64,000 bases of DNA. Source: an uncultured Eisenbergiella sp. Lineage in GTDB: Bacteria > Bacillota > Clostridia > Lachnospirales > Lachnospiraceae. The stretch covers positions 1,041-65,040 of the forward strand of contig CANQFM010000012.1 of NCBI GenBank assembly GCA_947598825.1. Reading direction: 5' to 3'. The number at the start of each line of letters is the position of its first letter. Positions within the stretch are counted from its first letter, which is position 1. The position numbers and the translations under genes are program-made. The notes below the pieces were generated by a model. It did no database searches, was not told the DNA's origin, and saw nothing but the letters and a program-made list of their open reading frames with translations. Shown here piece after piece: positions 4,997 through 47,804 of the stretch.

Positions 4997-5770
4997 ATGA
5001 TAACAGAAGCTTTTGACGATCAGTCACCGGCGATCATCAATCCGCAGATCCGGGAGGACGCGCCGCAAGTCGATGCGTGCATCCTGACTTTTTCACATAA
5101 GATCGAATCGTTTGTCCTGTCAAATTACGAATGCAGGCAGATTGCTTCTTTTTGGTTTGCGACGGGCAATACGCCTATCTATTGTCTGGATTATAAAGGA
5201 AAGAAATTTGCGTTCTATAAAACTTATGTGGGGGCCCCTGCCTGTGTGGGTTCTGTGGAGGATACCCTGGCGGAAATTAAGACCGATAAATACGTTGTAT
5301 TTGGCGGGGCAGGCTGCTTAAATAAGGAAATTGCGCATGGAAGGGTCATGATACCCACGCAGGCTTATCGGGATGAGGGGACTTCCTATCACTATGCGCC
5401 CGCGTCGGATTATATCGCCGTAAAAAATGCGGATATCATTGCCCGCTTTATGGAAGAAAACGGGATCCCTTATGTGAAAGGAAAGACGTGGACTACCGAT
5501 TCTTTCTACAGAGAGACGGTCAATAACTTTAACAGGCATAAAGCGGACGGTTGTATTTCGGTAGAAATGGAATGCGCCGCTCTGCAGGCAATGTGCGATT
5601 TCAGAGGGTTGAATTTGTATATGTTTTTTACCAGCGGCGATCTGCTGGACGCACCCAAATGGGACAGCCGACGAAAAGAAGGGCAGACAAAAGGCACCCA
5701 GCACGATGTGGGGCATTTTGATATCGCGTTGGAACTGGCGCGGTATGTTGTGGACCAGCAGGAGGAGTGA
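4997..5770 (+). CDS. Nucleoside phosphorylase family protein (PNP/UDP family 1)
   Basis: AGGAGG RBS. YVGAPAC, FGGAGCL, AYRDEGTSYHY, WTTDSFYRET, SVEMECAAL, FTSGDLL. Confidence 0.85.
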   Translation: MITEAFDDQSPAIINPQIREDAPQVDACILTFSHKIESFVLSNYECRQIASFWFATGNTPIYCLDYKGKKFAFYKTYVGAPACVGSVEDTLAEIKTDKYVVFGGAGCLNKEIAHGRVMIPTQAYRDEGTSYHYAPASDYIAVKNADIIARFMEENGIPYVKGKTWTTDSFYRETVNNFNRHKADGCISVEMECAALQAMCDFRGLNLYMFFTSGDLLDAPKWDSRRKEGQTKGTQHDVGHFDIALELARYVVDQQEE

Positions 5771-6508: not shown

Positions 6509-7762
6509 ATGCAGAGAGAATATTTTCCGGATCACACACCCATCGACGGATGGTTTTACGATCTTCATATCCCGGCGCTTTCGGAGCTGGGTACGCCATA
6601 TGTGCTGACGGAGTACGGGATCCTGGATGACGGGAAGATCCATACAGAACAGATCCAGAAGCTCATCGACACGGTCCATGAGGCCGGAGGCGGCGTGATC
6701 GTGGTGCCCAGGGGTACATATATGACCGGCTCGCTCTTTTTTAAACAGGGCGTGCATCTCTATGTGTCAGAGGGCGGCGTTTTAAAAGGAAGCGCCGATA
6801 TATGCGATTATGAGATCCGCACCACCAGGATCGAGGGGGAAAGCTGTCTTTATTTTACGGCGCTGATCAACGCCGACGGGGTGGATGGGTTTACGATGTG
6901 CGGTCCCGGGACCATAGACGGAAACGGGCTGAGATCCTGGAAAGCGTTCTGGCTGCGGCGGACCTGGAACCCTGCCTGCACCAACAAGGATGAGCAGCGT
7001 CCCCGCCTGGTATATCTTTCCCACAGCAAAAATGTGCTGGTGGCGCAGCTGCATCTGATCAATTCCCATTTCTGGACGAATCACATTTATAAATGCGACC
7101 ATGTGAAGTTCCTGGGATGCGATATTTTTTCCCCGGCGGCGCCTGTGAAAGCGCCCAGTACGGACGCGATCGACATCGACGCCTGTACCGATGTGCTTGT
7201 AAAAAACTGTTACATGGAAGTAAACGACGATGCCGTGGTGTTAAAGGGCGGAAAGGGCCCCTGGGCGGACAGCGCTGCGGAAAACGGCCCCAATGAACGG
7301 ATCCTGGTGGAAGACTGCGAGTATGGCTTCTGCCATGGCTGCCTCACCTGCGGGTCGGAGTCGGTGCATGACCGGAATATCTTCATCCGCCGGATACGCG
7401 TGCGGGAGGGGAAAAACCTCCTTTGGCTGAAAATGAGGCCGGACACGCCGCAGCATTACGAATATATCACGGTGGAGGCGGTAGAAGGACGGATCGAAAA
7501 CTTCCTCAATATCAATCCCTGGACGCAGTTTTTTGATCTGAAAGGACGGCAGGATATGCCTGTCTCTGTGGCGGATCACATCCGGATCGCTGACTGTCGC
7601 TGCGAATGTGGGACCTATTTTCAGGTAAAAAAAGAGGAGACGCAATATCTCCTCTCAGATTTCACCCTGGAAAATCTGCATATCAGGGCAAAACAAAATG
7701 GATTTACAGAAGATGCGATCCGCAATCTGTCGGTTACAAACGTGACGGTGGAGGAAGGCTGA
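6509..7762 (+). CDS. GH28 galacturonidase (pectin/rhamnogalacturonan hydrolase family), cytoplasmic
   Basis: GGGVIVVPRGTYMTGSLF, GPGTIDGNG, STDAIDID (NTD-like), NDDAVVLKGG (DD), CHGCLTCGSE (GHG-like). No signal peptide. Confidence 0.85.
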   Translation: MQREYFPDHTPIDGWFYDLHIPALSELGTPYVLTEYGILDDGKIHTEQIQKLIDTVHEAGGGVIVVPRGTYMTGSLFFKQGVHLYVSEGGVLKGSADICDYEIRTTRIEGESCLYFTALINADGVDGFTMCGPGTIDGNGLRSWKAFWLRRTWNPACTNKDEQRPRLVYLSHSKNVLVAQLHLINSHFWTNHIYKCDHVKFLGCDIFSPAAPVKAPSTDAIDIDACTDVLVKNCYMEVNDDAVVLKGGKGPWADSAAENGPNERILVEDCEYGFCHGCLTCGSESVHDRNIFIRRIRVREGKNLLWLKMRPDTPQHYEYITVEAVEGRIENFLNINPWTQFFDLKGRQDMPVSVADHIRIADCRCECGTYFQVKKEETQYLLSDFTLENLHIRAKQNGFTEDAIRNLSVTNVTVEEG

Positions 7763-45168: not shown

Positions 45169-45888
45169 ATGCAGGATGAAAAGATTTTGAAACTCAAGGA
45201 AATTGTGGATCACAGCGACAACATCGTCTTTTTCGGCGGCGCCGGCGTATCCACGGAGAGCGGGATACCGGATTTTAGAAGCACGGACGGGCTCTATCAC
45301 CAGCAGTACGATTACCCGCCGGAAACCATTTTGAGCCATACCTTTTATCGGAGAAAGCCGGAAGAATTTTTCCGCTTTTACCGGAATAAGATGCTGGCAC
45401 TGGATGCAAAGCCCAATGCCGCCCATATGAAGCTGGCCCAATGGGAGCGGGAGGGAAAGCTGAAAGCGGTGATCACCCAGAACATCGACGGGCTGCATCA
45501 GGCGGCGGGCAGCAAAAAGGTGTTGGAATTGCACGGCAGCGTCCTGCGCAACTACTGCGAGCGCTGTCACAGGTTTTACGATGCGCGTTATATCCTGAAC
45601 AGCCAGGGCGTGCCCCGCTGTGAGTGCGGCGGCCCCATCAAGCCGGATGTGGTACTCTATGAAGAGGGACTGGATATGGGGATCATGCAGGAGGCGATCT
45701 CCTTTATCAGCCAGGCCGACGTACTCATCATTGGCGGCACCTCCCTTGTGGTGTATCCGGCGGCCGGCCTGATCGATTATTATCGCGGCCATAAGCTGGT
45801 ACTGGTCAACAAGACGCCGACGCCCCGTGACGCCATGGCGGATCTGGTGGTGGCCGGCAGCATTGGGGAGATCTTTGCGGCCCTGTAG
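45169..45888 (+). CDS. cobB: NAD-dependent protein deacylase (sirtuin)
   Basis: GGAGVSTESGIPDFRS, TQNIDGLHQ, ELHGS, CxxC..CxC zinc site, KPDVVLYEE, GGTSL.VYPAA. Confidence 0.93.
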   Translation: MQDEKILKLKEIVDHSDNIVFFGGAGVSTESGIPDFRSTDGLYHQQYDYPPETILSHTFYRRKPEEFFRFYRNKMLALDAKPNAAHMKLAQWEREGKLKAVITQNIDGLHQAAGSKKVLELHGSVLRNYCERCHRFYDARYILNSQGVPRCECGGPIKPDVVLYEEGLDMGIMQEAISFISQADVLIIGGTSLVVYPAAGLIDYYRGHKLVLVNKTPTPRDAMADLVVAGSIGEIFAAL

Positions 45889-45916
45889 TTTTGATTCTCA
45901 TATGCGGGAGGAGCGT

Positions 45917-46099
45917 ATGGATATTCAGGTGGGAGATGTCGTGACACTGAAAAAACAGCATCCCTGCGGCAGCAGGGAATGGGAGGTGCTGCGCATTGGA
46001 GCTGACTTCCGTTTAAAATGCGCAGGGTGCGGCCATCAGATCATGATCGCCAGGAAACTGGTGGAAAAAAATCTGCGGGATTTAAAAAGAAATCCTTGA
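45917..46099 (+). CDS. DUF951-family small protein
   Basis: GDVVTLKKQHPCGS..WEVLRIGADFRLKCAGCGHQIM. GGAGGAG RBS. Confidence 0.88.
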   Translation: MDIQVGDVVTLKKQHPCGSREWEVLRIGADFRLKCAGCGHQIMIARKLVEKNLRDLKRNP

Positions 46100-46124
46100 A
46101 ATCTGCGAGTTTTCATGGTATCAT
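46096..46124 (+). promoter_or_regulatory. sigmaA promoter of rpsF-ssb-rpsR
   Basis: TTGAAA-N17-TATCAT with a TG extension. Confidence 0.75.
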
Positions 46125-46142
46125 GTTAACTCGTGATATATA

Positions 46143-46187
46143 TTCCTTGCTCCTTTCTTAGAAAAGGGGCCAGAGACCAAAAGGAGG
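46143..46187 (+). ncRNA. Probable S6:S18 ribosomal-protein leader (autoregulatory mRNA structure)
   Basis: TTCCTT(46143) can pair with the SD AAGGAG(46181). Inner hairpin GCTCCTTT..AAAGGGGC, internal loop containing CC-purine. Position 5' of rpsF matches the known element. Confidence 0.6.
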
Positions 46188-46196
46188 TAAATTTGC

Positions 46197-46487
46197 ATGA
46201 ACAAGTACGAATTAGCCGTCGTTGTCAGTGCGAAGATCGAGGATGAAGAAAGAACGGCAGTTGTTGACAGATGCAAAGCTCTGATCGAAAGATTCGGCGG
46301 CACGGTCACCAACGTGGACGACTGGGGCAAGAAAAGGCTTGCTTACGAGATCCAGAAGATGAGAGAAGGCTTCTATTACTTCATCCAGTTCGAGGCTCCC
46401 GCTACCGCGCCTGCGGAGATCGAAAGCCGCGTTCGCATTATGGACAACGTGCTTAGATACTTAATCGTCAAAGCGGACGAAAAGTAA
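46197..46487 (+). CDS. rpsF: 30S ribosomal protein S6
   Basis: MNKYELAVVV, DDWGKKRLAYEIQK..EGFYY. Confidence 0.98.
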   Translation: MNKYELAVVVSAKIEDEERTAVVDRCKALIERFGGTVTNVDDWGKKRLAYEIQKMREGFYYFIQFEAPATAPAEIESRVRIMDNVLRYLIVKADEK

Positions 46488-46540
46488 GAAGCGCACCGCG
46501 TGTCTGAAATCCAAAAGACAGGCACAGAAAGAGAGTCAAT

Positions 46541-47008
46541 ATGAATAAAGTAATTCTTATGGGACGTCTGACCCGGGACCCGGAAGTCCGGTATTCCCAG
46601 GGTGAGAATGCAACCGCCATTGCCCGGTACACGCTGGCGGTAGACCGCAGGTTCAACCGGAACGGGGATGAGAACACCGCCGATTTCATCGGCTGCGTCG
46701 CCTTTGGAAGGAGCGCCGAGTTCGCGGAGAAGTATCTTCGGAAAGGAACCAAAGTGGCCATTACCGGCAGGATCCAGACCGGCAGCTATACCAACCGGGA
46801 CGGCGTGAAAGTGTATACCACGGATGTGGTGGTAGAGGATCAGGAATTTGCGGAGAGCAAGAACAGCGGGAATAACGCCGGATATAACAATGGGGGTTAT
46901 AACAACGGCGGTTCCGCAGGCGGCCCTTCCGCTCCCCAGCCCTCTGCGGCAGCGGACGGTTTTATGAACATCCCTGACGGGATCGACGAAGAACTGCCCT
47001 TCAACTAA
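46541..47008 (+). CDS. ssb: Single-stranded DNA-binding protein
   Basis: MNKVILMGRLTRDPE, ADFIGCVAFG, GRIQTGSY, C-terminal DEELPFN. Confidence 0.98.
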   Translation: MNKVILMGRLTRDPEVRYSQGENATAIARYTLAVDRRFNRNGDENTADFIGCVAFGRSAEFAEKYLRKGTKVAITGRIQTGSYTNRDGVKVYTTDVVVEDQEFAESKNSGNNAGYNNGGYNNGGSAGGPSAPQPSAAADGFMNIPDGIDEELPFN

Positions 47009-47010
47009 GC

Positions 47011-47220
47011 AATATTGCGAGCGAAGCGAGCAATATTGCGCTACTTCTCGAACGCGGAGCGTTTGAGAAGTTTCCCGAAAAATATTGCGAACATAGTGAG
47101 CAATATTGCGCTACTTCTCAAGCGCGAAGCGATTGAGAAGTTTCCCGAAAAATATTGCGAGCGAAGTGAGCAATATTGCGCTACTTCTCAAGCGCGAAGC
47201 GATTGAGAAGTTTCCCGTAA
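47011..47220. repeat. Three tandem 70-bp double-hairpin (REP/BIME-like) repeats in the ssb-rpsR spacer
   Basis: Units 47011-47080, 47081-47150 and 47151-47220. Each is AATATTGC-GA-xx-NNN-xx-GA-GCAATATT, then GCGCT, then ACTTCTC..CGC-GNA-GCG..GAGAAGT, then TTCCCG. Confidence 0.95.
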
Positions 47221-47249
47221 TGTAATTTTCAGACAGGAGGTTAACCATC

Positions 47250-47513
47250 ATGGCATTTAATAAATCCGAAAGACCGGAATCCCCCGCCAAGAGAAGAGGC
47301 GGCGTACGCAGAAGGAAGAAAGTCTGCGTTTTCTGCGGAAAAGACAACGTGATCGATTATAAGGACGCCAATAAGCTCAAAAGATATGTGTCCGAGAGAG
47401 GAAAGATCCTTCCCAGAAGGATCACCGGCAACTGCGCGAAGCATCAGAGAGCGCTGACCGTTGCGATCAAGAGAGCGCGTCATCTGGCGCTTATGCCTTA
47501 TATCGCCGAATGA
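47250..47513 (+). CDS. rpsR: 30S ribosomal protein S18 (zinc-ribbon C+ form)
   Basis: [49 protein letters not shown]. Confidence 0.98.
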
Positions 47514-47555
47514 ATTTAAGAAAGAGGGGCTGTCGGGAAATAACCAGCCCTAAGG

Positions 47556-47595
47556 CAGGGAGGTATGGAAAGTAACTGGCTTTCATACCTCCCTG
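47556..47595. terminator. Stem-loop downstream of rpsR
   Basis: CAGGGAGGTAT(G)GAAAG / CTTTC ATACCTCCCTG arms with a weak T-tail. Confidence 0.55.
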
Positions 47596-47665
47596 AAATT
47601 TTAGAAAAAGATGGCCCAAAAACCACCTTTTTTCCGTTCCATGTTACAATGGAACTATGCTCACC

Positions 47666-47804
47666 AATGATCCAGTCCGGCGTTATGTGACATTCGCGGC
47701 ATCCTTTATAAACGCCGGGCAGATTATGATCTTTGTATTCAGCCGGTAATTCCTGGCCGGACGCCAGCATACTCACGACATTTTCAAGCCGTAATCATCA
47801 GCAT
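47666..47804 (-). pseudogene. yafQ: Degraded YafQ-family mRNA-interferase toxin gene
   Basis: RLENVVSMLASGQELPAEYKDHNLPGVYKGCRECHITPDWII. Preceded in frame by a stop, and missing both the N-terminal segment and the C-terminal catalytic His region. Confidence 0.75.

Follow-up and report, generated by a model that had tools for sequence, protein, structure and literature searches.

The spacer between ssb and rpsR in a 64,000-nt stretch of DNA from an uncultured Eisenbergiella sp. (assembly GCA_947598825.1, contig CANQFM010000012.1, positions 1,041–65,040; "the window" hereafter) holds three tandem 70-bp units, each with two hairpins. These units belong to a repeat family that is dispersed in the Lachnospiraceae, conserved in structure, restricted to the sense strand, registered at stop codons and −10 boxes, and polymorphic in copy number. 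The array is probably a locally amplified repeat resembling the repetitive extragenic palindromes (REPs), bacterial interspersed mosaic elements (BIMEs), and BOX elements of other bacteria. If functional, it would work through hairpins in the RNA where cistrons or transcripts meet their borders and would not be specific to single-stranded DNA-binding protein (SSB) and ribosomal protein S18. No description of the core sequence, or of such a Lachnospiraceae repeat, was found in the literature or Rfam, including the supplements of a survey of structured RNAs in the human microbiome (PMC8040213), and the two-hairpin repeat is apparently undescribed.

Structure of the ssb-rpsR array

Tandem Repeats Finder resolved positions 47011–47217 into 3.0 copies with a period of 70, 91% matches, and zero indels. 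This agrees with the initial annotation, made from the letters alone, in which three 70-bp units run from right after the ssb stop codon to about 30 bp before rpsR. Each unit consists of hairpin A (a 10-bp or 8-bp stem formed by GCAATATTGC), a GCT linker, hairpin B (ACTTCTC..GNA..GAGAAGT), and a tail (TTCCCG(A/T)AA). The first base of hairpin A in unit 1 is the base directly after the ssb stop codon (47009). Both hairpin sequences are as originally annotated, and the palindrome GCAATATTGC occurs four times, against 0.08 expected occurrences. Folded as RNA, units 1, 2, and 3 give two hairpins each, with energies of −35.0, −22.9, and −25.0 kcal/mol (z = −6.7, −3.5, and −3.5). Both the RNA fold (z = −8.0) and the DNA fold (z = −7.9) of the whole spacer are far more stable than those of its shuffles.

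The three units are not identical, with differences at several positions. It had been claimed that these differences mostly keep pairing, which is true of one change between hairpin B of unit 1 and that of units 2 and 3 (G·T to A-T) but not of another (A-T to a G·A mismatch). The convincing compensatory evidence comes from orthologs and paralogs, not from the three window copies. There is no promoter-like site inside the array and no intrinsic terminator (a GC-rich hairpin followed by a U tract), the tails reading GTTTCCCG or GGTTCCCG. A search of positions 45800–47800 with the Rfam 15 covariance models (E values up to 10), which include ribosomal-protein leaders, ribozymes, and Clostridiales motifs, gave no relevant match.

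Distribution of the repeat

BLAST of the unit against its own genome (3.05 Mb in 110 contigs) recovered the array locus and one weak match only. A flank-anchored pattern combined with an nhmmer profile identified five true loci with 9–10 units in total (Table 1). Among relatives of the genome, BLAST matches were found in 13 of 19 genomes from the same genus and in one other genus of the family, often at many loci and with up to ~20 matches per genome. None of 24 genomes from other families of the same order had a match. A covariance model of the core module (R1, built from 50 B modules and 44 positions long) matched exactly the three units across the 64-kb window (61–62 bits, E = 1e-16), including unit 1 at 47037–47079 (60.8 bits, E = 3e-16).

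An exact-pattern scan of 185,579 species, with one genome per species, returned 84 stretches, mostly from Lachnospiraceae or unclassified Clostridia. Carriers include Eisenbergiella, Acetatifactor, [Clostridium] symbiosum, Blautia, Roseburia, Robinsoniella, Gallintestinimicrobium, and Laedolimicola. Matches in other phyla have neither hairpin A nor the flanks and look like chance. The module therefore, by own-genome and relative searches alike, is multi-locus and dispersed, with copies at dozens of unrelated Lachnospiraceae loci in 5' untranslated regions (UTRs), between cistrons, and in 3'UTRs. Host operons are well-expressed and include ssb-rpsR, infA-rpmJ, rpoA-rplQ, tpiA, ilvC, pheA, and the junction of sugar-binding-protein and permease genes. 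The array is clearly not a single-locus array without covariation, and the proposal of an uncharacterized, dispersed, REP/BIME-like hairpin family of Bacillota whose structure is kept by compensatory changes is supported, here for the Lachnospiraceae.

Arrays in spacers between ABC sugar-binding-protein and permease genes have seven units at L021, L030, and L073 and three at L022 and L067. They begin after the stop codon of the binding-protein gene and are followed by a hairpin that, with its run of T, resembles a terminator and precedes the permease gene. No match to the module was found in the plasmid collection. The phage collection contained one (L151, GenBank MT837110.1, "UNVERIFIED: Bacteriophage sp."), which was rejected as a phage carrier; it is a mislabeled bacterial rpsF-ssb-rpsR locus with two repeat units.

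Module architecture

Core module B is composed of GCTAC, a hairpin of 13–14 bp (29–33 nt), and the tail G(G/T)T(T/A)CCCG. The base of the hairpin is nearly unvarying (TTCTC/GAGAA), the inner stem is variable, and the triloop is mostly GAA, GGA, or GCA. B is thus defined by its sequence across genera, beyond pairing alone. Hairpin A is locus-specific, with 63 distinct 5' arms among 69 arrays; its constant parts are the base, GC(A)..(T)GC, and often an apex of the form GA-minihairpin-GA.

Arrays have one to seven units and a locus-dependent period of 42 to 86 nt. At some loci, B alone is tandemly amplified with a period of 42–52 nt. All arrays are head-to-tail on one strand, and inverted pairs never occur. 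The element ends in ..AA|G on one side and ..CCCG on the other, without terminal inverted repeats. Units after the first frequently start within the loop of A, and the final one is frequently a truncated B; 24 of 67 arrays close with A directly repeated, compared to one of 67 in a control segment. These features indicate local duplication, not repeated insertion of a fixed unit. Loci with a single B often have the layout A-B-A', where all of A, or its loop and 3' arm, is directly repeated after B (e.g., L020, L037, L069, and L081), and arrays often finish in a truncated B starting GCTGCTTCTC.

Registration at stop codons and −10 boxes

A junction census was made for 69 non-redundant arrays, in which a host open reading frame (ORF) had to be on the same strand and at least 60 codons long. 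Hairpin A is preceded by ..AA in all of them. A stop codon directly abuts A in 29 arrays (TAA|G, or TGA-A / TAA-A) and lies inside A in another 11. In 18 arrays, a TATAAT-like hexamer ends exactly 3 nt before A (17 perfect; TATAAT-GAA|G or -AAA|G), and the junction class of the remaining 11 is unclear. Nine promoter-class loci were inspected; each has a −35 box starting with TTG or TTT at a distance of 16–18 nt, and their upstream sequences are otherwise unrelated.

Donation of the stop codon or of the final codons (..AAC TAA or ..AAC TAY TAA) by the element was considered and rejected. SSB ends in ..LPFN in 117 of its 120 best homologs and TpiA ends in ..IVNY in 97 of 120, and empty ssb sites keep AACTAA(G). 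The element therefore occurs after A-rich gene ends and does not supply them.

Strand and orientation

Crude longest-ORF calls for the orientation of flanking genes were too ambiguous at this GC range, and the junction census was used, which places the element on the sense strand of its host gene in 58 of 69 arrays. The GC skew of the window's genome is strong (~0.10–0.15 absolute). Four of its five loci are on the G-rich strand; the fifth (contig C13) is on the C-rich strand, where it is divergent from mscL but runs in the direction of the downstream gene. Of 61 arrays, the G-rich strand carries 50 (82%) and the C-rich (lagging) strand the other 11, a split no different from gene-strand bias alone, the 11 being about the usual share of lagging-strand genes. 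All 11 are co-oriented with the gene, for example the C13 locus and the copy in the murC 5'UTR (L096). Because lagging-strand arrays keep the orientation of the gene, orientation follows transcription and not replication.

For 44 of 50 modules, hairpin B folds better in the sense than in the antisense direction (P = 1e-7); sense-strand B contains 36 G·U against 8 A·C oppositions. The suggestion that selection acts probably at the level of single-stranded DNA (ssDNA) is not supported as stated, given an orientation that tracks the host gene for lagging-strand arrays too and this excess of G·U. Both favor the transcript as the relevant molecule, although GNA triloops are equally good as DNA mini-hairpins.

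Conservation of pairing

Between one and three units are present in the ssb-rpsR spacer of 11 species of the genus, the SSB proteins of which are 76%–91% identical. The first units from these 11 orthologous spacers were aligned using MAFFT. Paired bases occupy 98.8% of cells, and double changes occur in 12 of 26 pairs, compared to 2.7 in shuffles and 1–3 when partners are slid. For orthologous hairpin A, pairing is 100% and 9 of 12 pairs covary. The outer nine pairs of the 50 B modules are 92% paired, with double changes in five pairs versus 0.7 in shuffles. At the rpoA-rplQ loci (L037, L072, L090, and L113), the 5' arm of A is made of the last 4–5 rpoA codons, and the 3' arm tracks coding differences between genomes.

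Insertion and copy number

Five other Lachnospiraceae lineages (SSB ~79%–83% identical) have hairpin-free ssb-rpsR spacers of 43, 33, 30, 35, and 58 nt. In filled sites, the native spacer is retained downstream of ..CCCG, which identifies the element as an insertion directly behind TAA(G). No target duplication was seen when filled and empty ssb-rpsR sites were compared.

Strains have one, two, or three units at this site, and these five lineages are empty. Metagenome contigs with an identical SSB have one unit in seven cases and two units in one case, and two contigs end inside the repeat; the units also differ in apex and B variants. The zapA array of the same species has one unit in five contigs and two units in four. 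Short-read collapse may contribute to these differences, and the exact copy number of three rests on this one assembly, since other assemblies of the species carry one or two units or break inside the repeat.

Proposed role and alternative explanations

In the account that we favor, the ssb-rpsR array would be the local head-to-tail amplification of one insertion of a small modular Lachnospiraceae repeat. The insertion probably occurred in an ancestor of the genus and would have been kept since, with compensatory changes, as the number of units shifted by recombination or slippage between them. The module would be co-transcribed with rpsF-ssb-rpsR, and its stable RNA hairpins, stacked where a cistron or transcript ends or begins, would stop exonucleases and influence how the flanking mRNA is processed and decays. 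Hairpin A may also impede ribosome release, because it abuts the stop codon. On balance, the module would thereby determine how much neighboring genes yield relative to each other. Such a role as exonuclease barrier and setter of neighbor output is known for REP/BIME in Escherichia coli and proposed for pneumococcal BOX, and a role in mRNA stability is inferred here from the known behavior of REP/BIME (PMC3049150, PMC3733652).

Several points weigh against a transcript-level function. One transporter cassette (described below) has the module antisense to both neighboring genes, an exception to the sense rule. C(GNA)G triloops and GCGAAGC typify mini-hairpins of DNA. At promoter-class loci, a start 7–8 nt past the −10 hexamer would strip the first 3–4 bp of A from the transcript. 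In 17 of 19 cases, a purine occupies position 8 past the hexamer, and a start at that position would leave the first four stem bases untranscribed. An A stem of 8 bp, as in the C3 and C13 loci of the window's genome, would be weak as RNA because of this loss. On this evidence, the complete palindrome may matter as DNA or reflect the mode of insertion. The perfect TATAAT (17 of 18 promoter-class arrays), like the A-rich ..AA|G flank present at all loci, resembles the outcome of a rule for target sites, not of a constraint on function. Palindromes can also gain compensatory changes without selection, since template switching during replication can create and repair hairpins (PMC8794818), and maintained pairing alone is therefore no proof of selection.

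A different explanation, to which we assign a modest chance, is that the repeat is a selfish element acting as ssDNA. It would be a non-autonomous element resembling REPs or palindrome-associated transposable elements (PATEs), moved in trans by an HUH transposase of the IS200/IS605 or REP-associated tyrosine transposase (RAYT) type. The transposase would recognize the hairpins on one strand and insert the element 3' of a short A-rich target (AA|G), so that structure serves mobility and not the host. This would suit the lack of target duplication and terminal inverted repeats, the fixed 5' flanks (..TAA|G, ..TGAA|G, and TATAAT(G/A)AA|G), the coexistence of filled and empty orthologous sites, and the module's presence on a horizontally shared cassette. 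Strand specificity, GNA triloops, a CTAC tag beside hairpin B, and the 82% of arrays on the G-rich strand point the same way, and the A-rich gene ends look like target preference because the host C-termini are native. The window's genome also has an IS200-family tnpA. In a motif scan of that genome, however, this IS200-type tnpA was the only such gene, located at the ends of contigs C5 and C80 and adjoining no module, and the IS200 ends are unlike the module beyond a 5-bp TTCTC/GAGAA stem. Hairpin A varies in sequence between copies, unlike transposase-bound ends. Further evidence against mobility as the purpose of the structure is that all 11 lagging-strand arrays follow the gene and not replication, that the genome has just five loci, that units are strictly head-to-tail and never form REPIN-like inverted pairs, and that at least 11 species have kept the ssb-rpsR insertion, with compensatory change.

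Two proposals give the module a more dedicated role. It seems rather unlikely, but conceivable, that the A-B module is a dedicated transcript-boundary cassette of Lachnospiraceae, either inserted by a templated, flank-copying process that builds A beside B or read at B by a protein that sets mRNA ends. This idea draws on the base-precise placement, either at the stop codon or else 3 nt past the −10 box, and on loci where hairpin A pairs the last host codons with an inverted copy of them. We regard as quite unlikely that a Lachnospiraceae RNA-binding protein or endoribonuclease binds or cuts sequence-specifically at the invariant parts of the module (single-stranded GCUAC, the base of the UUCUC/GAGAA helix, and the tail GKUNCCCG), with arrays allowing multivalent binding or processing. 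The conservation of B in sequence and not only in pairing, its tandem amplification without A, the registration at transcript and cistron boundaries, and a possible stand-alone small-RNA copy with its own −10-like hexamer and terminator would all fit a dedicated factor, but the locus has no Rfam match and a conserved B could equally be a transposase site.

The remaining explanations concern the ssb-rpsR locus alone. A regulator of SSB versus S18 had been offered as an alternative in the initial annotation; it could be, for example, an autoregulatory S18/S6 or SSB site, and the position of the array and its conservation there in 11 species speak for it. It is now very improbable and largely refuted by the dispersal of the module, which also follows infA, rpoA, ilvC, pheA, tpiA, and ABC binding-protein genes and lies in the 5'UTRs of zapA and murC. 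Moreover, most Lachnospiraceae lineages checked have no element in this spacer, copy number varies among strains, and no ribosomal leader in Rfam matches. Equally hard to credit is a simple slippage duplication or assembly artifact without wider meaning. Assemblies do differ in copy number and two contigs break inside the repeat, but the unit is present as a single copy in many genomes and loci, the three window copies are mutually different, and independent assemblies hold the element at the same place.

Comparison with known repeats

The Lachnospiraceae repeat is similar to REP/BIME of Enterobacteria and Pseudomonas in several ways. Both are short, GC-rich, imperfect palindromes of 30–40 nt with a tetranucleotide tag (here CTAC, or GTAG on the other strand), and both are dispersed in intergenic regions between co-directional genes of well-expressed operons, where they often touch or provide stop codons (Di Nocera et al. 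2013, PMC3733652). They form arrays of variable number that are plausibly transcribed as RNA hairpins, and the copies at binding-protein/permease junctions have the layout of the malE-malF REPs in E. coli. The two differ in that Lachnospiraceae units are strictly head-to-tail and REPs mostly form inverted pairs (REPINs), that the Lachnospiraceae unit has two different hairpins, one of them locus-specific, and that the window's genome has only five loci in 3.05 Mb compared to tens to hundreds. In addition, the Lachnospiraceae repeat is sense-oriented, has a second registration class 3 nt after the −10 box, and has no known RAYT. CTAC is near-invariant 5' of B; read as GTAG, it lies 3' of the hairpin, a polarity opposite to that of E. 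coli REP (PMC3733652). PMC3733652 reports no GTAG or CGTC REPs from Firmicutes.

BOX of Streptococcus pneumoniae (boxA-boxB(n)-boxC) is likewise a composite repeat of a Firmicute, with an internal module in strain-variable tandem number, predicted stable RNA stem-loops, and rare novel insertions (Croucher et al. 2011, PMC3049150). Judged by that description only, the two have no sequence similarity. BOX has terminal inverted repeats like those of insertion sequences (ISs) and is over-represented between convergent genes (PMC3049150), whereas the Lachnospiraceae repeat is located inside operons and 5'UTRs, at stop codons and −10 boxes, with a locus-specific flanking hairpin.

Two other systems share part of this anatomy. 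PATEs, which derive from IS200/IS605, are strand-specific, have sub-terminal hairpins, lack target duplication and terminal inverted repeats, and insert 3' of a short fixed sequence. The Lachnospiraceae repeat has these features, but the hairpins of PATEs correspond to those at the ends of a cognate IS, and here A varies by locus and the resident IS200 ends differ. A REP within 15 nt of a stop codon reportedly lowers translation of the upstream gene in E. coli, with ribosome stalling and tmRNA as the means (Liang, Rudd and Deutscher, Mol Cell 2015). In both cases, a stable hairpin directly behind the stop codon has to be melted by the terminating ribosome; promoter-class copies of the Lachnospiraceae repeat differ in having no upstream ribosome, and the effect was shown in E. 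coli.

Few gut bacteria are as abundant as the Lachnospiraceae, and their post-transcriptional signals and small mobile DNA are almost uncharted. The repeat family is easily recognized and occurs in core operons for ribosomal proteins, rpoA, infA, tpiA, and ilvC. Its strain-variable copy number could make it a strain marker, a cause of assembly breaks, and a natural dial of operon stoichiometry, and the exact registration at stop codons and −10 boxes provides a sharp, testable hypothesis.

Features of the window locus and additional observations

Coordinates of the locus are given in Table 1. The candidate site at 46096–46124 is likely the promoter of the array-bearing rpsF-ssb-rpsR transcript, as judged from its sequence. 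The native spacer remainder is the counterpart of the entire 30–58-nt spacer in repeat-free lineages.

Table 1 Features of the rpsF-ssb-rpsR locus in the window and repeat loci in the same genome
Feature	Position or contig	Strand	Description
Candidate promoter	46096–46124	+	TTGAAA-17-TATCAT with TG; sole sigma-70-like site in 45900–47700, upstream of rpsF
rpsF (ribosomal protein S6)	46197–46487	+	ORF; Pfam Ribosomal_S6 on identical gene in same-species contigs
ssb (SSB)	46541–47008	+	C-terminus ...EELPFN; stop TAA 47006–47008
Unit 1 hairpin A	47009–47039	+	GCAATATTGC / GA-GC-GAA-GC-GA / GCAATATTGC; 10-bp stem, tandem G·A pairs, GCGAAGC mini-hairpin
Unit 1 core module B	47040–47080	+	GCT-ACTTCTCGAACGC-GGA-GCGTTTGAGAAGT-TTCCCGAAA; linker, hairpin base, and tail conserved
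Unit 2 hairpin A	47081–47109	+	5' arm shortened to AATATTGC; apex GA-AC-ATA-GT-GA
Unit 2 core module B	47110–47150	+	..AAGCGC-GAA-GCGATT.., one G·A mismatch; R1 match 47107–47149, 62.2 bits
Unit 3 hairpin A	47151–47179	+	Apex GA-GC-GAA-GT-GA
Unit 3 core module B	47180–47217	+	Array end ...GTTTCCCG; R1 match 47177–47219, 62.1 bits
Native spacer remainder	47218–47249	+	rpsR ribosome-binding site AGGAGG 47235–47240
rpsR (ribosomal protein S18)	47250–47513	+	ORF; ATG at 47250
Repeat locus, ssb-rpsR			3 units
Repeat locus, zapA 5'UTR	C3		2 units
Repeat locus, 5'UTR	C13		2 units
Repeat locus, after ilvC	C20		1 unit
Repeat locus, after rpoA	C57		1 unit

Three other identities of the array were ruled out. 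The sequence between B hairpins is itself repeated (the loop and 3' arm of hairpin A), which excludes a CRISPR array. Repeats of a type III toxin-antitoxin (ToxI-like) RNA do not apply, the downstream genes being rpsR, rplQ, rpmJ, zapA, murC, permeases, and others, and not an endoribonuclease toxin. A repeat-encoded peptide (a 63-aa ORF at 47015–47206) was rejected because a period of 70 cannot be divided by 3 and the number of copies varies.

Gene content downstream of the array is not constant. In some same-species assemblies with an identical SSB (L120 and L126), gdpP (GGDEF_GdpP/DHH/DHHA1) is located ~265 nt after rpsR; from position 47514 onward, the window has regulator and ABC genes after rpsR instead. 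This block is therefore strain-variable.

The IS200-family tnpA (MAKQTNSLAHTKWMCKYHIIFTPKYRRKIIY...) has a left-end hairpin and is inserted just after terminators, on the reverse strand in both cases (C5, ~103520–103876; C80, ~6735–7090). The location of both copies at contig ends indicates that the IS is multi-copy and assembly-breaking. On contig C3, the GC skew switches sign at ~40 kb (+0.07 to −0.12), a candidate replication origin or terminus.

The cassette with the antisense module encodes a lantibiotic/bacitracin-type ABC transporter and a histidine kinase and is near-identical in Ruminococcus sp., Blautia, Laedolimicola, and Roseburia inulinivorans (L091, positions 5080–5270; also L039, L048, L076, and L106). 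A single A-B module lies between the stop codon of the kinase gene and four CCTTGCA iterons. It has TGCAAT-TAA in front at the canonical distance and a terminator ~60 nt behind, and the module may be a stand-alone small RNA gene.

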